This document shows, piece after piece, positions 5,404-63,641 of a stretch of 64,000 nucleotides of DNA. How positions within the stretch are numbered: the stretch's first letter is position 1; every line of letters starts with the position of its first letter. Under the pieces are notes generated by a model. That model was not told the origin of the DNA and did not search any database. It was given only the letters and a program-made list of their open reading frames with translations. The position numbers and the translations under genes were made by a program. The stretch is from Candidatus Berkelbacteria bacterium (GTDB lineage: Bacteria; Patescibacteriota; UBA1384; JACPKC01): contig JACPKC010000010.1 of assembly GCA_016187225.1 (NCBI GenBank), forward strand, positions 67,541 to 131,540, written 5' to 3'.

Positions 5404-6480
5404 ATGAAGCGCATGATCGTCCTTGCCGGCGGGGGAACCGCCGGACACGTTTACCCGGTTTTAGAAGTGATACAGGCGTTGAGAAACTTAGACCCACTGC
5501 TAGATTTTGCTTATATCGGAAATCAGACTGGCCCCGAGAGTCAGTTGGTGCGAGCAGAGCAGGTGCCATTTTATGGCATTCCGGCCGAAAAACTTCGGCG
5601 TTATTGGGATTGGCGCACCTTTCTTCTACCCTTTCGAATTTTCAAAGGCACAGTCGAAGCCTTTGGGCTTTTAAGGATGTTAAAAGCGCAAGCGGTATTT
5701 TGTAAAGGCGGTTATGTGTGCGTGCCAGTTGCCTTAGCCGCTCGCTTCTTGCGTATTCCGATAATTTTACATGAGACGGATTCGATCATGGGACTTTCAA
5801 ATCGCTTAGTGGCGCCTTTTGCGCAAGCGGTTGCAATTAGTTTTCCACGGCCATCACTTATCGAAGCTGGTAAAAATACGCGCATCGTTTATACCGGTAA
5901 TCCAGTCCGACGAGAATTTTTTTCTCAAAAAAAGATCGAGCGTGTCGATGATCGTCCCTGCCTTGTCATAGTTGGTGGTTCGCAAGGCGCACATGCAATT
6001 AATTATTTCATTCAAGTGATTTTGCCCAAACTGCTCGAGCGCTATCGAGTGATTCATATTACGGGGCCCCAAGAGTTTTCAAATTTCCGTCAATTTACTC
6101 GCACAGATGTTTACGAGCCGGTTGCTTACGCCGAGAAAATCGTTGATCTTTTAGCGCAGGCGGATTTAGTTATCTCGCGCGCTGGTGGCACAATCTTCGA
6201 ATTGGCCGCTCTCGGCAAGCCGACAATCTTAATTCCAATTCCTAATTCAGCCAACAATCATCAGCGCGTGAATGCGGAAATTTTACTAAGTCGCGGGGCG
6301 GCGGTTATGCTGAATGAGCGTCAGCTTCAGCCCGCTCAACTTCTGAAAGAAATTACTACCCTTTTTCGAGATTCGATGCGTCGACAGAAGATGGGTGAAC
6401 GGATTCGAGAATTTGCTAGACCAAATGCCGCCCAAGATGTGGCGACTTTAATTTTAAACTCGATCGAGGACCGAGCATGA
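5404..6480 (+). CDS. murG: Undecaprenyl-PP-MurNAc-pentapeptide-UDPGlcNAc GlcNAc transferase
   Basis: N-terminal 'LAGGGTAGHVYP' glycosyltransferase family 28 motif is present, in dcw context. Confidence 0.9.
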   Translation: MKRMIVLAGGGTAGHVYPVLEVIQALRNLDPLLDFAYIGNQTGPESQLVRAEQVPFYGIPAEKLRRYWDWRTFLLPFRIFKGTVEAFGLLRMLKAQAVFCKGGYVCVPVALAARFLRIPIILHETDSIMGLSNRLVAPFAQAVAISFPRPSLIEAGKNTRIVYTGNPVRREFFSQKKIERVDDRPCLVIVGGSQGAHAINYFIQVILPKLLERYRVIHITGPQEFSNFRQFTRTDVYEPVAYAEKIVDLLAQADLVISRAGGTIFELAALGKPTILIPIPNSANNHQRVNAEILLSRGAAVMLNERQLQPAQLLKEITTLFRDSMRRQKMGERIREFARPNAAQDVATLILNSIEDRA

Positions 6481-13166: not shown

Positions 13167-14507
13167 ATGGCAAAAACAGCGACAAGCGTTTTTGTTTGCA
13201 CCGAATGCGGGAGTGAAACTGCGCAGTGGGTCGGGCGTTGCGGCGCTTGCGGCACTTGGAATAGTGTGCGAGTAATGCGTGGCTTATTGAGCCGATCACA
13301 AGTTCATCACGTTGAGCATAATCTTGGGTCAATCGACTTGACTCCGCTTGCGAACGCTAAACTTAAGGCGGCTCCGGAACGAAGGAGATCCTTGCAAGAA
13401 GTTGACCGTGTGTTGGGTGGTGGACTAATGCCGGGGAGCGCCATTCTTTTGGCGGGTGAGCCTGGGGTTGGCAAGTCGACACTGCTTCTTGAGATCGCAA
13501 AATGCGTCGCAGTTCAGGGCGAGGTGCGGTATATTTCGGGCGAAGAATCGGTTTTTCAAGTGAGTGATCGCGCTCGGCGCCTTCAAGCTCTCGCGTCCCA
13601 ACTCGTAGCTATATCACTCACGAACGTTGATCAAATAATCGAAATTATGCGCCAAACGCCTCGGCCGGGGCTCGTGATGATCGATTCAATTCAAACCGTC
13701 TATGATCCTCAATTTCCTTCCACGCCGGGGAGTTTGGTTCAAGTTCGAGAATGTGCTCTCAAGTTAGTCGCTGAAATTAAACTCCTTAACATCCCACTTA
13801 TTCTAACGAGTCATGTTACCAAAGAGGGTACCCTGGCGGGGCCGCGCGCGCTTGAACATTTAGTCGATGTCGTACTCTATTTAGAAGGGGAAAGGACACA
13901 TGCTTTACGCATGTTGCGCGGCGTTAAAAATCGCTACGGCCCAACCGATGAGATCGGTGTTTTTCAGATGAAAGAGTCCGGACTCGAGGCAGTTGAGAAC
14001 CCATCGGCACGTTTTTTAGCCGATCGCGCCGAGAATACATCTGGGTCAGTAGTTGCGCCAATTATTGAAGGCACGCGACCCTTTTTAGTTGAGGTGCAAT
14101 CGTTGGCGACAAAAACGACATTTGGTTATCCTAAGCGTCGGGCGCTGGGTGTTGAGACTAATCGACTCGAGCTCATTCTTGCCGTCCTCGAAACCCGTGT
14201 CGGTCTGTGTTTAGCTGAATATGATATCTTTGTTAATCTTGTCGGTGGCTTTCGTGTGACCGAGCCCGCCGTTGATTTGGCAATCGCAATGGCCGTGGCT
14301 TCCGCCGTTACTAATCTACCGCTTGATCCACATCTCGCTGTTTATGGTGAAATTGGTTTAAGTGGCGAGATTCGCCCAGTAACTTTTGCTCTGCGGCGCA
14401 AAAAAGAGATGGAACGGCTTGGCTTTCACCCGCTGACCGGTAAGCGTTTGGTTGATATTTTGAATCAAGTTTTGCCTGGCTGGCAAAAAATCAAGGGCAG
14501 GGGATAG
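13167..14507 (+). CDS. radA: DNA repair protein RadA/Sms
   Basis: It has an N-terminal C4 zinc finger '[23 protein letters not shown]', a RecA-like Walker A 'GEPGVGKST', the KNRYG motif and a Lon-like C-terminal domain. Confidence 0.93.
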
Positions 14508-26705: not shown

Positions 26706-26779
26706 TGGCAGGAGCTGGAGGAATCGAACCACCGACCGCGGTTTTGGAGACCGCTGTTATACCACTTAACTAAGCTCCC
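26706..26779 (-). tRNA. tRNA-Trp (anticodon CCA), CCA encoded
   Basis: Acceptor GGGAGCT/AGCTCCT, anticodon stem GCGGT/ACCGC with loop CTCCAAA, and T-loop GGTTCGATTCC. Confidence 0.8.
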
Positions 26780-26789
26780 TTTCTAATTG

Positions 26790-26978
26790 TTAGGTTCGCG
26801 GTTTTGGATTTGGCAATTTTGTCTCGTTATGTTGAGTGTGTTTGCGGCACCAAGTGCAGTATTTTTCAAGCACAAGCTTATCAGTTGTGTTCACAACATT
26901 TTTTGACACCACATAGTTGCGTCGCTTACATTCGACACAAGTGAGATTAAATTTTTGTCGTTTGCCTTTTTTTGCCAT
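26790..26978 (-). CDS. rpmG: 50S ribosomal protein L33
   Basis: '[27 protein letters not shown]...[16 protein letters not shown]' matches L33 with its Cys4 zinc-ribbon. The start is taken at the internal ATG (MAKKGK) rather than the ORF-track upstream extension. Confidence 0.85.
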
Positions 26979-27010
26979 ATTCTTCCTTTCTTTGTCTTTT
27001 TCTACAAAAC

Positions 27011-27085
27011 TGGAGCCCACGGGCGGATTTGAACCGCCGACCTATTCCTTACCATGGAATTGCTCTGCCTCTGAGCTACGTGGGC
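27011..27085 (-). tRNA. tRNA-Thr (anticodon GGT), CCA encoded
   Basis: Acceptor GCCCACG/CGTGGGC, anticodon stem ATTCC/GGAAT with loop ATGGTAA, and T-loop GGTTCAAATCC. Confidence 0.8.
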
Positions 27086-27086
27086 T

Positions 27087-27173
27087 TGGTGCTGGGGGTA
27101 GGATTCGAACCTACGAAGGCGCTGGGCCGTCAGATTTACAGTCTGATGCGTTTGACCGCTTCGCTACCCCAGC
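27087..27173 (-). tRNA. tRNA-Tyr (anticodon GTA), class II long variable arm, CCA encoded
   Basis: Acceptor GCTGGGG/CCCCAGC, anticodon stem TCAGA/TCTGA with loop CTGTAAA, a long variable arm and T-loop GGTTCGAATCC. Confidence 0.78.
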
Positions 27174-27181
27174 TTGTTATC

Positions 27182-27256
27182 TGGAGCCACCTGTCGGATT
27201 TGAACCGACGACCTTCACTTTACAAAAGTGTTGCTCTACCGCTGAGCTAAGGTGGC
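27182..27256 (-). tRNA. tRNA-Thr (anticodon TGT), CCA encoded
   Basis: Acceptor GCCACCT/AGGTGGC, anticodon loop TTTGTAA and T-loop GGTTCAAATCC. The anticodon stem has one mismatch. Confidence 0.7.
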
Positions 27257-27328
27257 AGGCAATTCTCCAGAAAAATAATACTAGCAAGGTAGAGAGGAAT
27301 ACTCAATGATGGGGGAGCTTATTTTATA

Positions 27329-27389
27329 CACTCTACGAACGTTAAATGATTAGAGAGTGTCTAGATACTCATTTAACGTTCGTAGAGTG
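27329..27389. promoter_or_regulatory. Perfect 21-bp inverted repeat (CACTCTACGAACGTTAAATGA / TCATTTAACGTTCGTAGAGTG) with a 19-nt spacer; candidate operator or RNA hairpin
   Basis: It is seen directly in the sequence. It lies between the tRNA array and the downstream hypothetical gene. It abuts a TATAAT hexamer at about 27390-27395. Confidence 0.6.
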
Positions 27390-27454
27390 TATAATTGACA
27401 GAAGTGGAGTATTCTGATATATTGCTAATGTACGAAGTGTTCTATGGAGGGAAA

Positions 27455-27961
27455 ATGGAAAAGAAGGATAAACAAAAAGACTTTCAACGTCTTTTCGATG
27501 AAATCGAGTTGCAAATTTTGTATGCCGAAACTCCAATTCAACTTTCTTCAGCGCTTGCAAAGATTACAAAAAACAATCGCTTAATCCAGCGAAATTTACA
27601 TCGTCTATATGATATCGCAAGCCCGGCACGGATTCTAGGGTTAGTCTTACGCGGTTACGAAATTCCTGATGCTCTAACGCGTCTAGAATCAAATCGTTCT
27701 TTGCTCGATCTAAATAGAACCCTAGAGACTCTGTCGAGAACAGCGCTTAAGGAGCAAATTTGGCTCATGCTGGCGCAACAACGTGAAGTTCTGCTTGCTC
27801 AAATAGAACAAGATTTAGAGACACTTGTGCTTAGGTCGTCTGATCAGCGAGCGATTGCAAGTAGAAAACAAATTTTACTTGCAACCTACGAGCTAATCCA
27901 GGAAAATACAAAAATTGCAGTTGAAAAGGTTTTTGGGCGCGCTTTGTCGGTGGAGGGGTGA
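27455..27961 (+). CDS. Hypothetical protein (about 168 aa, helical)
   Basis: The ORF has a strong SD (GGAGGG) 3-4 nt before its ATG. The ORF-track TTG start at 27395 lacks an SD. There is no recognizable family. Confidence 0.5.
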   Translation: MEKKDKQKDFQRLFDEIELQILYAETPIQLSSALAKITKNNRLIQRNLHRLYDIASPARILGLVLRGYEIPDALTRLESNRSLLDLNRTLETLSRTALKEQIWLMLAQQREVLLAQIEQDLETLVLRSSDQRAIASRKQILLATYELIQENTKIAVEKVFGRALSVEG

Positions 27962-28893
27962 TGATAACCGTTATTGAGGAATTTGAAGAACTGATTGACC
28001 ATGGTCACGAGCATTTTGCGTGGATAGAACGCTTTATTGCGATCTATCTTTTTCATTTTGTGATCAATGTTCTAGCCTAAGGGGCTATCCCGAACAAGAC
28101 AGTTTTTCTTCGTTTCAGGTAACCGGCTGAAAACTATTATTCTTCGACTCTCCGTTTTACGGCATTTTTTGAATGTCTCAAACAAGAGCCAGAAGTATAA
28201 ACCCGTCAGTGCGGGCAGATTTTGTTATCGCGAGTGAACCGTAGCGATCCTGGTAGATTGTCGCGGTTGCAACCTCGTAATTTTCAGGATTGCTTCGTCG
28301 TCCTTGGCTCCTCGCAATGACGACAATGAGAAAGCCCTGATAAATAGGGAAACAGGGGATTGAAGGTGGCGTGGATAACTGTGGATAACTTTCACAATGG
28401 GGGAGTGAAAAGGGGATGCCGCGCCTAAACTGTTTAGGCGATTATATGGTGCATGAAAAAGTTTATAAGAGGGGAGTAAAGATTATTTAATGCTAGGGAA
28501 GTGCAAATTTTTTTTATTGTGTGTAATTTTTTATCCTACAAACTCTCCCCCGCTTTCAGCTTGTCGTCGTAAGTCATCCAATTTTTGATAGGCGCATGTT
28601 GCGTACGCTAAAAAACTCATTGATATTTTAGAAATAAAATACTACTCCCCTGCTCCAAATTTTTGCATCATTTGAGATCGTTAGGAAATTTATTTTCTGC
28701 ACCTCGAAAAGAGCGCCAGCGACGCTTTTGCAGAGAAGTCCTCGACTATATAAATAATTCTCGATGCGCTTCGCTTACTCGAACAAGAATACTTTTTAAC
28801 CATCAAAAACTTTCGACACGCCCGGACAAGAACCCAAGGCCAGTCTTGAGCAAAACATTTCTTGCTAATGGGCGGGAGACTTAAGACAGAGAG
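27962..28893. other. About 930-bp gene-free AT-rich region between convergent genes; candidate ncRNA locus or replication-origin-like region
   Basis: No ORF of 60 aa or more on either strand across about 700 bp. Tandem DnaA-box-like motifs CGTGGATAA and TGTGGATAA at about 28370-28388. AT-rich tracts at about 28490-28540. A perfect 8-bp-stem hairpin at about 28422-28440. Confidence 0.4.
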
Positions 28894-48171: not shown

Positions 48172-49265
48172 GGTTCCAACTCTTGCGCTTTATCGACTGG
48201 TACCTCGTCGGGATAGTTTTAATTTTAGTAGTTGGTGGTGTGGCGATGATCTACAGTCTCACTTTTGCCCGCTCCGGTTCCGAACTCGCTTTCACACAAG
48301 GCGCGTTCGTGATTTTGGGCTGGATCACGGCGTCCATTTTGGCAGTTTTTGATTACCGCCGACTGCGTTCGTTCAGTCTGCTATTGTATCTTGCAGTTGG
48401 CTTACTGCTCTTGGGCGTTACGTTTTACGGTACGGTCGTTTTCGGTGCGCGTCGCTGGATCGAGATTGGCGCATTCCAACTCCAACCATCTGAATTGTTC
48501 AAGCTAGTCGCGGTCATCTTAATTGCCCGAGTCCTCGCCGCTCGCTTTGGCGCGATTCGTTTTAGAGATTTATTTGTTGTTAGTCTCTTATTAGGTCTTC
48601 CGATTACTCTAGTGCTGAAACAGCCGGACTTAGGGACAGCCGGTGTTATATTTTTAACGTTCGTAATAATTCTGACGATCGCAAAACTGCCGCGCTCGCT
48701 TTGGGTTAGCATCGGCCTAAGCCTGCCCATCCTTATGTTGGCGATTTTTTTGAATCTTAAAGACTATCAAATTGACCGGGTTCAAGTTTTCCTCAATCCT
48801 GCGTCCGATCGTTACGGCTCTGGCTATAACGTCCTTCAGTCCTTAATTGCAGTTGGCAATGGCGGTCTGTTTGGTCAGGGACTGGGTCAGGGAACGCAGA
48901 GCCAGCTTGATTTTTTACCCGTCATTCATACCGACTTTATCTTTGCCGGCATGGCTGAAGCAGTTGGCTTTTTTGGCTCTTTTGCCTTTCTCGTACTTTT
49001 CGCCGCTTTAATCATTCGAGCGCTAATGATTTCTCATCGAGCGCCGGATGCATTTGGTTCATTCTTGGCCTTTGGCATCGCTAGCCTGTGGTTCGTTCAA
49101 CTGGCGATTAATGTGGGGATGAATTTAGGGCTTGCGCCCGTAACAGGCATCCCACTTCCTTTCATCTCTTACGGAGGCACCGCGATTGTGTGTAATTTTA
49201 TCGCACTGGGGATTCTTGAAAGCATTGCAATTCGGTCACAGCAAGGTTATTTTCGCACATATTGA
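48168..49265 (+). CDS. rodA: SEDS-family protein RodA-like (second SEDS paralog in the window)
   Basis: 'GARRWIEIGAFQLQPSE' and 'LPVIHTDFIFA' SEDS blocks. It has about 10 TM segments and an ATGA overlap with ileS. Confidence 0.8.
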   Translation: MRFQLLRFIDWYLVGIVLILVVGGVAMIYSLTFARSGSELAFTQGAFVILGWITASILAVFDYRRLRSFSLLLYLAVGLLLLGVTFYGTVVFGARRWIEIGAFQLQPSELFKLVAVILIARVLAARFGAIRFRDLFVVSLLLGLPITLVLKQPDLGTAGVIFLTFVIILTIAKLPRSLWVSIGLSLPILMLAIFLNLKDYQIDRVQVFLNPASDRYGSGYNVLQSLIAVGNGGLFGQGLGQGTQSQLDFLPVIHTDFIFAGMAEAVGFFGSFAFLVLFAALIIRALMISHRAPDAFGSFLAFGIASLWFVQLAINVGMNLGLAPVTGIPLPFISYGGTAIVCNFIALGILESIAIRSQQGYFRTY

Positions 49266-49645: not shown

Positions 49646-49834
49646 ATGATCCGCCCCATTGCATATCTTCGAGAAAGTTACGACGAATTACGGAAGGTGA
49701 AATGGCCAAGTCGCGAAACTACGATTCAATACACTTTAACCGTGATTGGCGCTGTTATTCTCCTGACAACTTTCTATGGCTTAATCGATTTTGGCCTTTC
49801 AGAAATTATCAGCCGGATGCTTAACCGTAGCTAA
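49646..49834 (+). CDS. secE: Preprotein translocase subunit SecE
   Basis: 'ELRKVKWPSRETTIQYTLTVIGAVILLTTFYGLID' is the SecE C-terminal TM signature. Confidence 0.85.
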   Translation: MIRPIAYLRESYDELRKVKWPSRETTIQYTLTVIGAVILLTTFYGLIDFGLSEIISRMLNRS

Positions 49835-56308: not shown

Positions 56309-56461
56309 GTTCTTTCTCGCGTTCTGACTAGGAGCCGCGGAGAGTTGTCGGAGAGCGTTGCTCAAAGACAGTGCCCCTCCTTCCCGGCTGCCCCTCGGGT
56401 CTGGTTCCAGCTTGCTGGCGCCGGCCTGGTCAGAACATGGGGAAGAATAAAGAGGAAGCTA

Positions 56462-59434
56462 ATGTCAGAAAATCACGAGCAATCGAGAGCTAATCCAACG
56501 CCTGAAGGTTCGCATCAAGTTGAGAGTCAGGCAATTTCGCATATCCAAAATGCAATTCCTGAATATCAGCAGAATACGCCAAGTTTCGTAGCGTACAACT
56601 CGCACACTACTCAATCTATTGCTTCTGTTCGCGCTCAAATTGCAAACTACACTGAAAAACATCGCTTGAGTCAGGAAGCGCTTGCTATCCCGCGCGCGAG
56701 CATGCTTGGCAAAATTAAACAATCGCTCACGGTTCCCGCCACACCCGAACACCCAACTCGACTCCAGACTTTTTCCTCAAAGTTTCGAGAGTTTTGGCAC
56801 AAATCAAGCACGCGGTGGGCGCGTTTCGGCGCTGGCGCCGTTGCGACCGGTACAGCCTTCGTGGGCGTTGCCACAGCTAATCCGGTTTTAATTGGTCTTG
56901 GTTTAAGTGGCCGAGTCGCGCTTTCTGGAGCGGGCGCTTTCGCCACCTCTCAAACTTCTATGGAGGGCCGCGATTTGCGCCGTGAAACTAACACCAGCGA
57001 AAAACTCTCACCAATTCGTTGGCTAAAGGGTATCTTTAATAAAAACGCGCTTGCTTTAACTCCTCGAGAGCTTCAATCGATGCAAGTTGAGGAAAGGCAG
57101 GAGCGTTTAGGCAAAACTCTTGCAACGGCCCGAGCAATGGGCGCCGGGAATGTTTTTGATGTTACCAGCCAGCCAACGGCTCTTGAGCAACTCGTCACTT
57201 ATTCTCTGCATACCACGCGCCGGGTTGAACAAGTGCGCCAGGCGCTTCAGAATCGTTTAGAGAGAACTAAATCGAAAGATGCCGGAGTTCAAGCGCAGGC
57301 GCTTCAAAAGTTTGATCAATACAAACTCAACGCAACTCTAAATCGAATTCATATTCACCGATCAAAGTTTTTTGATAATCAAGAAGCCAAGATCGAGCGT
57401 GAAAATTTTGTTCAAGCGGTGGAAAATCATGCAGTCAACAATTTGGTTGAGGCTAAGCAGACTGCTAAAAAGCGCACCTGGATTGCCGCCGCATGGGGCG
57501 CGGGTGCGGCTTTGGTAACGGGATTAACGGGTTTAAAACGCATTGAAACGGCTGAACTTTCCTCCAATTACGGCGAAGGTGTTGGGCCGGCGCTCAAACG
57601 TCTAGTCGAAGGAATTAAGAACATTCCGGGCAATCTAAAAGCGATGGCTGAACGCATCTACGACGATTATTTGCGGCCGACGCCAGAAGTGACGGTTCCC
57701 CCTGCCAGTATTTCTTCTACCGTTCCTGAAGTCATTGGCAGTTACGCTTATCAAAAATCACTCTTGCAAGCCATCGAGAAGGCGCGTGAAACTGGCACGA
57801 ATGCGCCAATTTGGCAAGCGCTCACTGATCTTAAGAAGCAGGGAATTGTTTTAAGCGATGTCTTGACAGCAGACAATAAGAACGAACAGGGTCTCTCTTT
57901 CATTGATTACCTCAAGTTAAACGTTGATCGTTTTCAATCGCCAGAGGAACAGCCGGCGTTGCACAAGCTACTTTCCAGTCAGATCGATGCTCATGGCATC
58001 AGTTCAAGCTATGTCAATGAAAGTCATATCAACTACGCCAACGCGCGCGGTATCAGCACAACTCTTCACGGCAAAAAACTTGAAGCGATGTTCGATAGTC
58101 ATGGCCGTGTGGCGGATTTAGAACTTGGCGGCGTCAATCGTCCGGATCTAATTGAATATATCTCAACTAGCGATGGCCGCTTGTGCTTTGATGAAGTTGC
58201 TTTTAGCGCCGATCACCCGATGCCGGAAGTTGCGCGTCGAAATCCTTTTGCTTTGCCGCAACTGGTTCAAGATGAAATGGTACAGGCAACCGGTAAATTG
58301 CCAGCCACCGACGTTATTGAGCAGCCACAACCGATCGATGCTTTTATTGGGGCGCATAAAGGCGTTAAATACTATGAATATAACTTTGGTGATCATGAGC
58401 TAGTGACTTTCACGCAACCGAGTGGAACATTTGAAGTTTGGGAAAAAGTTGATCTAGGCGTGCGCGGAGTCGGCATTCAACCGGCGGCCGAATTTAGGGA
58501 AATTTTTCAGGGCGCGGAACTGCCAAAGCCAGATTATGGCGTTGAGTATCAGGGCGAGTATCAGGTTTCATTTGAGAATGACTTTGGCGGTCCGATCACG
58601 GCCGAGCGAGTTGCTGGTTTCAGTCAAGAAGAGTTAGCGCACTTCAAGAAAGTGGCCGCCGATCGAGAATCGATCACTCGGTTCTTGAGTCGGCACAGTA
58701 TTGAGAGCCAAAATTTCTTTGTGAATGCGGAATTAGTTAATAGCAAGAATGCGGCTGATGGTACCTGGACAACGTTCTATAATCCAAACGCCCAGTTTGG
58801 TAGCCCCGATACCGGTGTAAAGATTCGTTTCGACGAAGTTGGTCAGGTACAAGAAGTCAAAATGGCCCACATTCCAGTGAACGTTGAGGAAACCCGTCGC
58901 CTCGATGCCTATGTGAGCGAAATGGCCCGTCAGGCGGAGCAGAGTGGTACTGGCGTGAACACTGCCGAAACCGCACGGCTCGATGATGCAGTTCGCGCAC
59001 TGGCTCGCGGAGATCAGGCCAAAGCCACAGTTACTCCAGTTGCTTCGTTTGTAACGAACTCAATGGTGAATACATCGGTTCTGGATGCGCGACCTGAAGT
59101 TGTAGCCCCGCCTATTCAACAAGATGTTATCCATGAGCCAGTAGTAAAGGTTCCAGCGCATACTGATTTTCAAACGTCGATAATGTCGCCTGCGATAGAG
59201 CAGGTTCAGACTCAAAATGAACTTCCTCGAATCGATCTCGCGCCTGAAATTGCGCAACCAGAAGCAATCACTTCAAGCGAAGTACCATTTATGCAAGTCA
59301 TTCCTGAATCGGTTAACGAGACATCTCAAGCGCCGCGCTTGCCTGTAATTTCAGAAAATGTTGAACCGGCTGGATCGGTAGGAGAGAGCGGAGTTTTGCC
59401 GGTGATTCAAGTTGATTCCGAACTCGAAAAATAA
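56462..59434 (+). CDS. Large hypothetical protein (about 990 aa) with two Gly/Ala-rich hydrophobic segments and a Pro/Val/Glu-rich C-terminus
   Basis: The start is taken at the ATG after the AAGAGGAAG SD. The hydrophobic segments are 'GAGAVATGTAFVGVATANPVLIGLGLSG' and 'WIAAAWGAGAALVTGLTGL'. No recognizable catalytic motif. Confidence 0.6.
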   Translation: MSENHEQSRANPTPEGSHQVESQAISHIQNAIPEYQQNTPSFVAYNSHTTQSIASVRAQIANYTEKHRLSQEALAIPRASMLGKIKQSLTVPATPEHPTRLQTFSSKFREFWHKSSTRWARFGAGAVATGTAFVGVATANPVLIGLGLSGRVALSGAGAFATSQTSMEGRDLRRETNTSEKLSPIRWLKGIFNKNALALTPRELQSMQVEERQERLGKTLATARAMGAGNVFDVTSQPTALEQLVTYSLHTTRRVEQVRQALQNRLERTKSKDAGVQAQALQKFDQYKLNATLNRIHIHRSKFFDNQEAKIERENFVQAVENHAVNNLVEAKQTAKKRTWIAAAWGAGAALVTGLTGLKRIETAELSSNYGEGVGPALKRLVEGIKNIPGNLKAMAERIYDDYLRPTPEVTVPPASISSTVPEVIGSYAYQKSLLQAIEKARETGTNAPIWQALTDLKKQGIVLSDVLTADNKNEQGLSFIDYLKLNVDRFQSPEEQPALHKLLSSQIDAHGISSSYVNESHINYANARGISTTLHGKKLEAMFDSHGRVADLELGGVNRPDLIEYISTSDGRLCFDEVAFSADHPMPEVARRNPFALPQLVQDEMVQATGKLPATDVIEQPQPIDAFIGAHKGVKYYEYNFGDHELVTFTQPSGTFEVWEKVDLGVRGVGIQPAAEFREIFQGAELPKPDYGVEYQGEYQVSFENDFGGPITAERVAGFSQEELAHFKKVAADRESITRFLSRHSIESQNFFVNAELVNSKNAADGTWTTFYNPNAQFGSPDTGVKIRFDEVGQVQEVKMAHIPVNVEETRRLDAYVSEMARQAEQSGTGVNTAETARLDDAVRALARGDQAKATVTPVASFVTNSMVNTSVLDARPEVVAPPIQQDVIHEPVVKVPAHTDFQTSIMSPAIEQVQTQNELPRIDLAPEIAQPEAITSSEVPFMQVIPESVNETSQAPRLPVISENVEPAGSVGESGVLPVIQVDSELEK

Positions 59435-59540
59435 TCTTTGAGAGTCTTAGAGCTTTTCACTTTGTGTGTAAAGCTTGATAGGCGTTCAAAGCGGAACGTT
59501 AAAAATTTAGAAAAAATAAGAAGGAAGGGGGTACTCAAAG

Positions 59541-60455
59541 ATGGGTACTCGTAAAAATGGGAACGTTTTTTTTCTTATCGTCGCGCTGGTGGTGAGTGTG
59601 ATGACGATACCAGTGTTCGCACTGGGTTTTCTCGGGCCAATCCTGACTTTCGGGATGTGGTTAGCCGAACAGTTTCGTGACCAGCACCATCGGGCGGAGA
59701 CTCATTCGCCGACGGTTTCATTCGTAATTCAGGTGCCTGACAAGTATCGTCAGCGCGCCGATGAATTTCGGATCGAAACCGACATGGTGATAATCCCGCC
59801 AAGCGAGTCGGGCTACACGTACCGACTCATTAAGGAAGATGGTGGGATGCTTTGGCCAACGACCGTCCGCGTCTGGACTCCGACTTCGGGGTATGAGATT
59901 GAAAAGGTCGAACTGCGGGAGGGGAACCACGTTGTCGATAAGATCGAAGGCAAGCGACTGAAGGCGATGAAGTATTTCGACCTTCAGTTGCCAGATTCGG
60001 TCGGTAACGCGCGGGGTTCGCCCGACCACTTCGAAGTGGTCTTCTACCTTCCGGACGATGAGGAGGAGCGCGTGTCGTGTTCCTTCAGTGTTTTGGCGCT
60101 GACGATCTACGACTGGTATCTGCAGTACGATGAACTGCAAAACCAGCGGATTGGGCGCCGAATGGCTGAAACGCCGCGCCAACTCCACCCTGAGCGGACC
60201 GAGACGGTGACGGTAATCGTTGAGACCGAGACCGGTCTGACGGTTATCGACACCGTAGGGGTGAATCCGCAGGACCGGGCGGCAATCGCTTTCTCGGAGA
60301 AGGTTCAGCCGGGTGTCTATCGCATTCGGGTCAAACCGGGTGCGGTCCGCATCGGTCTGGACCGGCCCGGAGTGGCGACTCCGCCGCCGATTCAAGACGG
60401 TTTCTACGCCGTCGCGCCTGGGTCGCAAACCCAGATCACATTGAAAGGGAGGTAG
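59541..60455 (+). CDS. Membrane-anchored hypothetical protein (304 aa) in a GC-rich segment
   Basis: SD AAGGAAGGGGG. N-terminal TM hairpin 'VFFLIVALVVSVMTIPVFALGFLGPILTFGMWL'. Local GC and codon usage (CGG/GGG/GTC-rich) differ from the flanks. Confidence 0.6.
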   Translation: MGTRKNGNVFFLIVALVVSVMTIPVFALGFLGPILTFGMWLAEQFRDQHHRAETHSPTVSFVIQVPDKYRQRADEFRIETDMVIIPPSESGYTYRLIKEDGGMLWPTTVRVWTPTSGYEIEKVELREGNHVVDKIEGKRLKAMKYFDLQLPDSVGNARGSPDHFEVVFYLPDDEEERVSCSFSVLALTIYDWYLQYDELQNQRIGRRMAETPRQLHPERTETVTVIVETETGLTVIDTVGVNPQDRAAIAFSEKVQPGVYRIRVKPGAVRIGLDRPGVATPPPIQDGFYAVAPGSQTQITLKGR

Positions 60456-60460
60456 AAAAG

Positions 60461-61237
60461 ATGAAAATTTTTTTCATCTTGTTAGCAGTTTTTTTTCTGG
60501 CGGGTCTGCCCACCAGTGCGCGTGGGTATTTGGTACCCGGCAAGAACCCGCAGTCGCCGGCGATCCGGAACGCGGGCAACGAAGTGACGGCGCTCCGGAT
60601 CGCCCAGGAGAAGGGCTGGCGGGTCTACCAGTTGCCCGTCAATACCTACGTGGGTAACTACGGCGCTTCCGGCGAGTTTGTCCGGGGTGTCTTGCCCAGG
60701 GGCGCCTGGATGGGCACAGACGGTACCCACGAGTACGTCGTGGGTTATACCGACGGCCGAGGGGTTTGGCGTGGGTGCGGAAACCTGACCGATCGCATCC
60801 CACCGCCGCCGCCAGTGCGCATTCCACCACCATCGCCGCCGAAGCCGCCGCCCCTCATCCCCTTCATACCGATCACTTCGGGTCTCGTGGTGACTCACGA
60901 GTGGCGGGGTGAGAAGAGTGGCGCGGCGACCGCCAGCGAGTTCTTAACTCGCAACCCGGTTCAAGCGCCGACTATTGTCGGGGATGCCAAGGTGAGCATC
61001 AGCCAGGTGCAAACCCAGGCTCAACCCCTGGCCTTCCCAGACTTTAATATTTCGGCTTTGTCTTCGGCAAACGCCGAAACCGGGCCGATCCAAAACAACA
61101 ACTCCGCCACCTCCCAGGCGAGTAACGTGAACACCGTGCCGATCGGTGTGAACACCGGGCCTGGGAGCGTGACGGTGACTGGGAGTGGCGCGGGTACGCA
61201 AACCGCGCCCACCCAGCAGAACAATTTGATCAGATAG
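60461..61237 (+). CDS. Secreted hypothetical protein (258 aa) with a Pro-rich linker and an N/S/T-rich C-terminal repeat-like segment
   Basis: SD AAAGGGAGG. Signal peptide 'FFILLAVFFLAGLPTSARG'. Polyproline 'IPPPPPVRIPPPSPPKPPPLIP'. The C-terminus 'IQNNNSATSQASNVNTVPIGVNTGPGSVTVTGSG' resembles the repeats of the next gene. Confidence 0.6.
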   Translation: MKIFFILLAVFFLAGLPTSARGYLVPGKNPQSPAIRNAGNEVTALRIAQEKGWRVYQLPVNTYVGNYGASGEFVRGVLPRGAWMGTDGTHEYVVGYTDGRGVWRGCGNLTDRIPPPPPVRIPPPSPPKPPPLIPFIPITSGLVVTHEWRGEKSGAATASEFLTRNPVQAPTIVGDAKVSISQVQTQAQPLAFPDFNISALSSANAETGPIQNNNSATSQASNVNTVPIGVNTGPGSVTVTGSGAGTQTAPTQQNNLIR

Positions 61238-61399
61238 CAACAAGGAGGAGTTGCTGTCTGACAGAGTCTTACCCCGAGCTTCGGCTCGGGGGATATTTCC
61301 TCTAGTCAAATCATGTTGACTGGAGGAAAGTATCAATTGAGGGCGTGCGCTGGTCGAAGCGGGCGAGAGTGCAAATATCGGAAAGGTGGTGAATAAACT

Positions 61400-62230
61400 A
61401 TGCAAAAATCTATCGCAATCGTTGCGTTTGCCTTGATGGTGACAGCTGGATCCTCAAGTGTATTCGCGGCGACCGTGCAAAATAACAACAGCTCTACGAG
61501 TCAGAGCCAGAACACTAACGCCGTTACAACGGTTGTTAATACTGGCAGTGGCTCCGCGGCTGGTTCAAGTAGTTCGGCGAGCGCCCAGGATTCGTCAACG
61601 AATCAATCGAACGAGAGGCAATCAACTTCGACTTCGCAAAGTTCGGGCACTGCGACTACAGGTTTGGTGCAAAATAACAATGTTAGCACCAGTCAAAGCC
61701 AGAACGTAAACGCCACCACAACGGTTGTTAACACCGGCAGTGGGAATGTGAGCGGCTCGGCGAGCGCCAGTGGCGGTCAAGCGTCAGAAACAACGCAAAG
61801 CAACTTTGCTTCTGGAAACAGCCAAAATCGGACCGAAAATAACAACAGTTCGATTAGCCAAAGCCAGAACGTGAATTGCGGCACAACCGTTGTCAATACC
61901 TCATCAGGTGATGCCTCTGGTGCGTGTGCGGCGGCAGGTAGCCAAACGGCAACTACGACACAGTCGAACACAACCGAACAGACTCAAACGAAAAAGAATG
62001 AGACCAAGATTGAACAAGCCCAATCAGTGGCACAAGCAACTTCAGTGGCTGGTGTTCCAACCACAACCACTCAAGTCCCGCCGGTTACAACCAAAACCGA
62101 GCTTCCGAAAGAGCTCCTGAAGACGGGTGCAAATACGGTTGCTCTCGCGCTTGGTAGCGCAGTGATCTCAGCCGGTGGCGCAGCATTCGCTCGTCGCAAG
62201 CAGATGGTCGCAGATCTCATCGTTGGCTAA
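61400..62230 (+). CDS. Surface repeat protein: signal peptide, three tandem repeats of about 38 aa (VQNNNxSTSQSQNxNAxTTVVNTGSG...), Thr-rich stalk and a C-terminal LPXTG-like sorting signal
   Basis: Three tandem repeats are visible. The C-terminus 'LPKELLKTGANTVALALGSAVISAGGAAFARRKQ' is a motif + hydrophobic helix + basic tail. Confidence 0.7.
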   Translation: MQKSIAIVAFALMVTAGSSSVFAATVQNNNSSTSQSQNTNAVTTVVNTGSGSAAGSSSSASAQDSSTNQSNERQSTSTSQSSGTATTGLVQNNNVSTSQSQNVNATTTVVNTGSGNVSGSASASGGQASETTQSNFASGNSQNRTENNNSSISQSQNVNCGTTVVNTSSGDASGACAAAGSQTATTTQSNTTEQTQTKKNETKIEQAQSVAQATSVAGVPTTTTQVPPVTTKTELPKELLKTGANTVALALGSAVISAGGAAFARRKQMVADLIVG

Positions 62231-62255
62231 TGCTAACGGTATGTTTTAAGGGGCC

Positions 62256-62281
62256 AAAACGACGCGGAAACGCGTCGTTTT
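62256..62281 (+). terminator. Rho-independent terminator after the repeat protein gene
   Basis: Perfect 11-bp stem AAAACGACGCG-GAAA-CGCGTCGTTTT followed by T-rich sequence. Confidence 0.85.
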
Positions 62282-62321
62282 GCGTTGAAGGAGGGGGAGC
62301 CATCTGGTACACTACCGAACC

Positions 62322-63338: not shown

Positions 63339-63641
63339 ATGCCAGGCATGTTTGACCAAGCGAAAGCGCTCCTTAAGGCGCGGAAGGCCCAGCAAGAGTT
63401 AAAAAAAACCGAGATTGAGGCGAGTGGGGGAGAGGGTAAGGTATTGCTCGTTTTTACCGGAGATCTCAAGCTGAAATCGATTACTCTTGACGAGTCATTG
63501 CTTGCGCCAGAGCGTAAAGCCGAGCTCGAGCGCTTACTCAAGGACACTTTTACTCAAGGTATGCAGGAAACCCAGCAAGTGGCGGCCGATAAAACGCGGG
63601 GCGTGATGCGCGATCTCGGCATGAATATCCCGGGGATGTAG
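63339..63641 (+). CDS. ybaB: Nucleoid-associated protein YbaB/EbfC family
   Basis: 'MFDQAKALLKARKAQQEL...GEGKVLLVFTGDLKLKSITLDESLL...LERLLKDTF' is the YbaB pattern. Confidence 0.8.
   Translation: MPGMFDQAKALLKARKAQQELKKTEIEASGGEGKVLLVFTGDLKLKSITLDESLLAPERKAELERLLKDTFTQGMQETQQVAADKTRGVMRDLGMNIPGM

Follow-up and report, generated by a model that had tools for sequence, protein, structure and literature searches.

A long inverted repeat in a Berkelbacteria genome holds two copies of a conserved, putatively regulatory promoter motif of CPR bacteria

Why should a long perfect inverted repeat lie in the short gap between a tRNA array and a hypothetical gene? The question was raised by an earlier note on the 64,000 nt of Candidatus Berkelbacteria DNA analyzed here (the window), which described two perfect 21-bp arms spaced by 19 nt and suggested a repressor operator, a hairpin for processing or stability of the tRNA operon transcript (at its 3' end), or the terminal repeat of a small mobile element. 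The anatomy was recovered as described, including a TATAAT hexamer right after the right arm (27390-27395), the strong Shine-Dalgarno sequence of the downstream ORF (ATG at 27455) and the absence of an immediate T-run. The 21-mer, CACTCTACGAACGTTAAATGA, occupies 27329-27349 on the plus strand and 27369-27389 on the minus strand. The perfect arms are in fact longer than first noted, extending to 26 nt with 19 nt between them, and if one mismatch is allowed they reach 29 nt (27324-27352 and 27366-27394) with 13 nt between. The spacer adds another 4-5 pairs, leaving a 5-nt loop and a 4-nt bulge. The features of the locus are as follows.

26706..26779, minus strand: tRNA-Trp, after rpmG
26790..26978, minus strand: rpmG, after the tRNA array
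27011..27256, minus strand: array of tRNA-Thr(TGT), tRNA-Tyr(GTA) and tRNA-Thr(GGT), called by ARAGORN and Rfam
27278..27306, minus strand: candidate promoter of the tRNA operon (8/12 matches plus TG), better than any other minus-strand candidate in 27240-27480
27324..27349, no strand: left arm, TTATACACTCTACGAACGTTAAATGA, apparently a lineage-specific inverted copy of a conserved promoter-upstream element
27332..27345, no strand: left dyad, TCTACGAACGTTAA, with core ACGAACGT at 27335-27342
27350..27368, no strand: 19-nt spacer, holding a third copy of the arms' outer 10-mer and GATAC
27369..27394, no strand: right arm, the conserved promoter-upstream element (a dyad, O1, and a GTGTATA-like stretch), abutting the -35 hexamer
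27373..27386, no strand: right dyad, TTAACGTTCGTAGA, with core ACGTTCGT at 27376-27383, at the orthologous position in about ten other lineages
27395..27423, plus strand: predicted sigma-70-type promoter of the 168-aa gene, 11/12 matches plus TG (extended -10)
27455..27961, plus strand: gene of the 168-aa protein HYW32_03260, specific to bacteria of the candidate phyla radiation (CPR) and all-helical (HEAT/ARM-like), with Shine-Dalgarno sequence GGAGGG at 27446-27451
27958..28080, plus strand: 40-aa ORF overlapping the stop codon of the 168-aa gene (GTGATG)

Among the spaced perfect inverted repeats of the window, the next in length has arms of only 13 nt. Further copies of the 21-mer, which the earlier note had proposed to look for, did not turn up, as no third CACTCTACGAACGTTAAATGA site occurs elsewhere in the window at up to 3 mismatches (shuffle expectation 0). 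Folding of the RNA from both strands, proposed as well, gave energies far below those of shuffled controls, with -41.5 kcal/mol (z -8.3) for the plus strand and -38.1 kcal/mol (z -11.4) for the minus strand; DNA folding yielded -27.2 kcal/mol (z -11.5). The source is a MAG, and chimeric reads can create palindromes, so that a chimeric fold-back generated during assembly needs to be weighed. We find this explanation barely credible. A segment of 10,734 nt that includes the repeat is identical in a Logan contig of SRR12113420, a separate public assembly (its reads are possibly the same as those of the MAG), and the two assemblies are thereby equal base for base over 10.7 kb. Moreover, the repeat is internal, its distinct flanks are syntenic with those of relatives on both sides, and other genomes have real sequence orthologous to the right arm.

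We then consider in which direction the flanking genes are transcribed. The tRNA genes are on the minus strand, and hence it is the 5' (promoter) end of their operon, not the 3' end, that is turned toward the repeat. The near-consensus promoter of the 168-aa gene begins at the very base 3' of the right arm, and consists of TTGACA (27395-27400), 17 nt, TG (27415-27416) and TATATT (27418-27423), with a predicted start site at about 27430. The tRNA operon candidate is composed of TTGAGT (27306-27301), 17 nt and TGnTAGTAT (-10 at 27283-27278), with a predicted start at about 27271; it is known from the window only, and all promoters and start sites given here are predictions. The 71-bp repeat takes up most of the 88 bp that separate the two back-to-back -35 hexamers. 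On both sides the best predicted promoters point outward, and the repeat is therefore part of neither predicted transcript. The TATAAT hexamer is probably not a -10 element; its own -35 is poor, and its last T is shared with TTGACA.

These arrangements bear directly on the idea of a transcribed RNA hairpin, be it a terminator, an element for processing or stability of the tRNA precursor, or a structure in the 5' leader of the 168-aa mRNA. The predicted folds are indeed very stable on both strands, as expected of the stem-loop of an intrinsic terminator, and transcription from a weak plus-strand site resembling a promoter (27252-27279, 9/12 matches) might in principle extend across the repeat. 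Sites of this quality are however expected by chance, at 2.8 per shuffle, and the repeat precedes the tRNA operon on its 5' side and, for either strand, lies upstream of the best promoter. The stem is followed by no U-run on either strand, and no terminator was called. Rfam, searched at and below gathering scores, returned only generic miRNA-precursor matches of 23-29 bits against gathering scores of 86-200; only the tRNAs pass these thresholds, so no known Rfam family accounts for the repeat. In relatives the conserved part of the repeat is found upstream of the -35 or, in one locus (L004), in the promoter spacer, and hence outside the mRNA. An intrinsic terminator or tRNA 3' processing hairpin was rejected also on its anatomy, the stem being 26-31 pairs long, AT-rich, without U-tract and located between divergent promoters instead of after a gene. 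Thus, the reading as a 3'-terminal hairpin of the tRNA transcript did not hold up, and we judge any transcribed hairpin to be very improbable.

The gene downstream of the repeat encodes a protein with no Pfam, NCBIfam or PHROG match. The predicted structure of HYW32_03260 (pLDDT 86.5) is an all-helical solenoid resembling HEAT/ARM repeats, so that the protein looks like such a solenoid and not like a known DNA binder. A word-indexed search with this single protein matched only itself; homologues were recovered through L33 synteny and then by profile searches. Synteny led to L002, a Patescibacteria MAG with the same arrangement, where the homologue is 31% identical (E 2e-21), and the profile searches also yielded the loci L012-L021 and the homologue of L004. 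The family is small, with 22 clusters among 1.8 billion representatives. Identities are 22-41% among about ten other CPR lineages, with the pair L016/L017 (66%) as the exception. In most lineages the gene is followed by an ORF of 33-43 aa with a hydrophobic C-terminus (L013 1321-1443; L014 762-884; L016 2608-2730; L017 3537-3668; L015 3545-3646), the product of which is probably a co-translated small membrane peptide.

The order of the neighboring genes is informative as well. In most lineages, for example L003, L004, L012, L015, L016 and L021, the 168-aa gene is downstream of, and co-directional with, a tRNA(Thr-Tyr-Thr)-rpmG-tRNA(Trp) block. This block (26706-27256 in the window) is inverted relative to the gene in the window and in L002/L013/L014, and judging from the gene order one breakpoint must be near the repeat. 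Long, spurious ORFs run antisense to the tRNA array (window 26917-27309, plus strand; L013 93-602; L002 1491-1994, minus strand), the one of L013 being called as a 169-aa gene in public gene calls.

Such rearrangement, together with the tRNA gene that the repeat adjoins and a non-coding stretch of about 930 nt located 600 nt further on, invites the view that the repeat is a relic or site of DNA rearrangement, whether as the terminal inverted repeat (TIR) of a miniature mobile element, as a site for a recombinase or integrase beside a tRNA, or as a scar left when the tRNA-rpmG block was inverted. Several observations oppose it. The L002 group is inverted too and has no long repeat, so the inversion neither needed nor left one. 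It is the 5' end of the tRNA that is faced, not the 3' end, and the right arm is orthologous promoter DNA. The suggestion of a small mobile element was likewise abandoned, as was assignment to the MITE, REP or TIR classes: the two arms are the only ones in the 64 kb and lie just 19 nt apart, no transposase or integrase is found in the window, and viral, plasmid and phage collections hold no copy. A relic of this kind is in our assessment even less probable than a transcribed hairpin.

The 930-nt stretch itself (27962-28893, between the 40-aa ORF and a PKD-domain gene) has no convincing ORF and no Rfam match. It contains DnaA-box-like 9-mers on the minus strand (28370-28378 and 28380-28388) and an imperfect 26-nt inverted repeat (28453-28478 and 28643-28668), and could be an insertion remnant or an unannotated RNA; the equivalent gap in L002, L013 and L014 is just about 50-190 nt. 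An origin of replication was considered for the two adjacent 9-mers (28370-28388) and rejected, with neither a cluster of boxes nor a GC-skew turn. Elsewhere, positions 59000-62300 have a GC content of 0.55-0.57 versus 0.43-0.50 in the rest of the window, and the ORFs at 56345-62230 are without Pfam match; this region may be foreign or fast-evolving DNA.

To return to the repeat, its promoter-proximal part was compared in 13 loci anchored on the -35 hexamer (the window, L002, L013, L014, L003, L004, L012, L015-L019 and L021). A promoter of the form TTGACn-17-TAnnnT is present in all 13 homologue-carrying loci, with TAnnnT 24-43 nt before the start codon. The sequence between the -35 and -10 hexamers is not conserved across the 13 loci, and serves as an internal control. 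A dyad, ACGnnCG, is shared by the window and 11 of the 12 relative loci, covering about ten lineages, and ends in each of them 11-12 nt before the -35 (L002/L013/L014, with one substitution in L014, and L003, L012, L015, L016, L017, L018, L019 and L021). The flanks of this site, O1, come close to the palindrome TCACG-ww-CGTGA, and the -35 is directly preceded by a GTGTATA(C)-like stretch. In relatives O1 lies upstream of the -35, just after an upstream terminator hairpin; in L004 the dyad sits within the -35/-10 spacer instead. The promoter spacer is a classic repressor position. The dyad is accordingly fixed at the orthologous promoter amid neighboring positions that have been randomized, and its retention at a protein identity of only 22-41% argues for selection on non-coding sequence. 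In L012 and L015 another gene separates the tRNAs from the 168-aa homologue and the motif is still at the promoter of the homologue, thus it follows the 168-aa gene and not the tRNAs.

In the window, O1 is contained in the right arm, where ACGTTCG ends 12 nt before the -35 and the dyad is centered at about -50.5. The relatives share GATAC upstream of the dyad, found here at 27364-27368 in the spacer. The outer 10-mer of the arms (AGAGTGTATA at 27384-27393 and TATACACTCT at 27325-27334) has a third copy in the spacer, AGAGTGTCTA at 27354-27363, 30 nt from the copy of the right arm. Elsewhere in the window no promoter-located copy of the dyad was found; the weaker PWM matches are all inside coding sequences, with the exception of one weak match (score 13.0, at 49683). 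Near-matches of the dyad include one at 48649, inside an FtsW/RodA coding sequence, and CACGAACGTTGA at 13613-13635 in a radA-like gene (13167-14507), the latter probably by chance. No description of the motif was found in the literature searched.

Each arm holds one complete 12-14-bp dyad, with centers 41 bp apart; the left one is at about -91.5 from the predicted start of the 168-aa gene and about -67.5 from that of the tRNA operon. The whole repeat is therefore best described as two full sites and not as the half-sites of one dimer site. This modifies the notion of a repressor operator, of which one part stood, as about ten other CPR lineages keep the arm motif at a constant spacing to the -35, and another did not, as the arms are not halves of a single dimeric site. 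Similarly, conservation in relatives was found for the short dyad at the promoter, while the long palindrome is present in none.

Is more than one site a property of the window alone? In eight of the nine other lineages where this is checkable, at least two sites are present. In L012, L015, L016, L017 and L018 an invariant 11-nt sequence, TCTACGAACGT, is found inside the coding sequence, at about +78 to +95 (within L012 2166-2188; L015 3074-3096; L016 2157-2179; L017 3077-3099; L018 242-264). It is the sole invariant run of at least 6 nt in the codon alignment, and encodes S-T-N-V with the third positions invariant too, in proteins that are 33-41% identical; overall, 4.5% of third-codon positions are invariant. 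This pattern is indicative of a DNA-level constraint embedded in the gene. In L019 the in-CDS motif is at +136 in a demonstrably different codon register, and in L021 at +139 over different codons. L004 has two extra copies, a perfect 18-bp palindrome at about -104.5 and another copy at +123.5. The former, TAATCACGTCCGTGATTA at 5750-5767, is contained in the 3'-terminal part of the gene upstream, some 105 nt ahead of the predicted start site of the homologue. Extra copies of the motif near the same promoter are in other words independent of coding constraint. No in-CDS copy was found in the window gene or the L002 group, the latter having a single site that is more self-palindromic there.

The spacing and orientation of the sites are less strict than their sequence. 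Measured from O1, the downstream sites are at distances of about 159-165, 213 and 229 bp, without tight phasing, and the site pair forms direct repeats in L016, L017, L018 and L021 and inverted ones in some other lineages. Since pairs exist in either orientation, what is conserved is the sequence and not the ability to pair, which favors recognition of duplex DNA by a protein and argues against an RNA or DNA stem.

The same consideration weighs on a cruciform, extruded by supercoiling between the divergent units and altering promoter geometry or meeting a structure-specific protein. With 26 bp plus 4-5 bp and an effective loop of 5 nt the stem is close to perfect, its DNA folding energy is as low as reported above, and the site is exactly between back-to-back promoters, one of which belongs to a tRNA operon; following the twin-domain model, negative supercoils gather between divergent promoters. 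Nevertheless, none of the relatives shows a palindrome of such length at this position. The conserved part is a short motif in either orientation, including the direct repeats of the four loci just named, which is the signature of sequence recognition, and the asymmetric 4-nt bulge and the imperfect 19-nt center would hinder extrusion. We consider a cruciform improbable.

How did the left arm arise? The segment TCTACGAACGTTAAA (27332-27346, the left dyad and the next base) is identical at 15 of 15 positions to the in-CDS site of L015. The left arm also has the GTGTATA-like flank that is specific to upstream sites, suggesting that it was derived from the right arm by inverted duplication. A counterpart of the left arm is absent from the closest relatives, L002/L013/L014. 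Identity of the arms over 26 nt, far past the 12-14-nt motif, is suggestive of a recent duplication, from which selection on the left copy is not inferable. A serious alternative, if a rather unlikely one, is hence that the right arm alone is functional and that the left arm is a recent neutral by-product of template switching or fold-back at a quasi-palindrome. The ancestral element is quasi-palindromic (outer ATAC...GTAT, central ACGwwCGT), and quasi-palindromes are the type of substrate on which template switching acts. Moreover, the arms are 100% identical where only about 12-14 nt are conserved across lineages, and the three closest relatives do with one site. Against neutrality, at least two sites are the rule in the other checkable lineages, the window alone has an extra upstream copy and is among those without an in-CDS site, and the copy falls near helical phase, at 41 bp.

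Taken together, we hold with middling confidence that the repeat represents two operator sites for a putative regulator, born of a lineage-specific inverted duplication. The repeat would then be double-stranded regulatory DNA and not a transcribed hairpin. Its right arm would be the ancestral upstream operator O1 of a CPR-specific operon encoding the 168-aa helical-repeat protein and the peptide of about 40 aa, in the form of a 12-14-bp dyad, T(C/A)ACG-ww-CGT(G/A)A, centered about 50 bp upstream of the predicted start site. The left arm would be an inverted duplicate of the whole O1 element, producing a second operator 41 bp away, or about four helical turns. A sequence-specific DNA-binding protein, probably one dimer per dyad, would bind both sites cooperatively. 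In relatives the second site is in the coding sequence (+108 to +180) or further upstream, which suggests repression via paired operators and looping. As both sites are between the back-to-back promoters, the 168-aa operon, and possibly the tRNA operon too, could come under the control of this factor. It is thus from the anatomy and positions of the repeat, and from the conservation of the motif and of the site pairs, that we infer protein binding, the sign of regulation and a function for the left copy. Speaking against an operator pair, the closest relatives (the L002 group) manage with one site, and a site centered at -50 is atypical for simple steric repression.

The putative regulator was looked for as well. 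The nearby HTH regulator that the earlier note had advised to seek was not found, as the 64 kb contain no gene for an HTH-type regulator, the only DNA-binding family found there being YbaB/EbfC (63339-63641). A 223/224-aa protein encoded upstream of the gene in L012, L015 and L004 was considered, as it has an apparent N-terminal HTH by eye, and was rejected; Pfam lends no support, and the protein is absent from L016-L019 and also from the window. The 340-aa neighbor is unrelated to it.

The proposed arrangement can be compared with established operator pairs. In the gal system, GalR acts via OE (-60.5) and OI (+53.5, inside galE), and LacI via lac O1, O2 (inside lacZ) and O3. Congruent with these, the same dyad is repeated, with one copy upstream of the -35 and, in most relatives, the other in the first gene, bracketing the promoter. 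In contrast to operators of the LacI/GalR family, the ACG-ww-CGT dyad has no central CG step, and both window copies are upstream (-50.5 and -91.5) without bracketing. Looping would here be an analogy of mechanism only. Tn10 tet represents another parallel, with two palindromic tetO sites between the divergent tetA and tetR promoters. Here too, two complete palindromic sites occupy a short gap between back-to-back promoters. The divergent partners are however a tRNA operon and a HEAT-like gene, with no regulator gene, and the window sites, centered 41 bp apart, are located outside the promoters, upstream of each -35 hexamer.

Upstream activating sequences with FIS sites are known at stable-RNA promoters, for example thrU(tufB) and tyrT of E. 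coli. Similarly, the putative protein-binding DNA of the window is about -50 to -100 from the promoter of a Thr-Tyr-Thr tRNA operon. Unlike FIS-type elements, the motif of the relatives follows the 168-aa gene and not the tRNAs, and it is unrelated to the degenerate FIS consensus.

The Gram-positive LexA (Cheo/SOS) box is CGAAC-N4-GTTCG, and each dyad shares with it one CGAAC/GTTCG pentamer. As there is but a single pentamer per dyad, with the partner 35 nt away in the window and not 4, and as the position at -50 is atypical, a Cheo box was rejected. In relatives, in contrast to the box, the partner pentamers are about 160 nt apart and in the wrong orientation. The diversity of LexA motifs is summarized in PMC8565304. 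The dyad could conceivably be a non-canonical LexA motif.

Further known classes were tried and dismissed. For CIRCE, the operator of HrcA (TTAGCACTC-N9-GAGTGCTAA), the elements ACACTC...GAGTGT do occur, yet they are spaced by about 20 and 50 nt and lack the TTAGC/GCTAA parts. An UP element would be A/T-rich at -40 to -60 and active at this position alone, while the core here is ACG..CG and copies occur also in coding sequences and in a promoter spacer. An inverton agrees neither with window arms enclosing 19 nt nor with the direct repeats of L016, L017, L018 and L021, and no recombinase was seen. Patterns of the LacI, parS, Rex and CRP-like types, compared by eye, do not fit.

A bolder version of the operator reading, which we regard as doubtful, would have the dyad define an undescribed regulatory circuit, deeply conserved in CPR bacteria, whose regulator is a new type of DNA binder, possibly the HEAT-like product itself, or a sensor of structure, and in which the 71-bp cruciform-capable palindrome of this genome couples tRNA output via supercoiling. 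If true, the operator pairs of this circuit would stay invariant even within a coding sequence.

Next to nothing is known of how CPR bacteria regulate transcription; they have few recognizable regulators and are hard to grow. The present comparison provides a promoter architecture, TTGACn-17-TAnnnT, and a defined cis-element, T(C/A)ACG-ww-CGT(G/A)A, that is paired and in some cases invariant within the gene, and which on the comparative data presented here appears to be a conserved regulatory motif of CPR bacteria, previously undescribed. The target operon is tied to the rpmG/tRNA-Trp locus in genomes labeled as Saccharibacteria, Berkelbacteria and other Patescibacteria. With the motif as bait, the regulator may become accessible to DAP-seq or a DNA pull-down, and the motif may also help to approach what the operon of the 168-aa protein and the 40-aa peptide does. 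The long palindrome that raised the question is perhaps best seen as an evolutionary snapshot, in which a second operator would have been made by inverted duplication.
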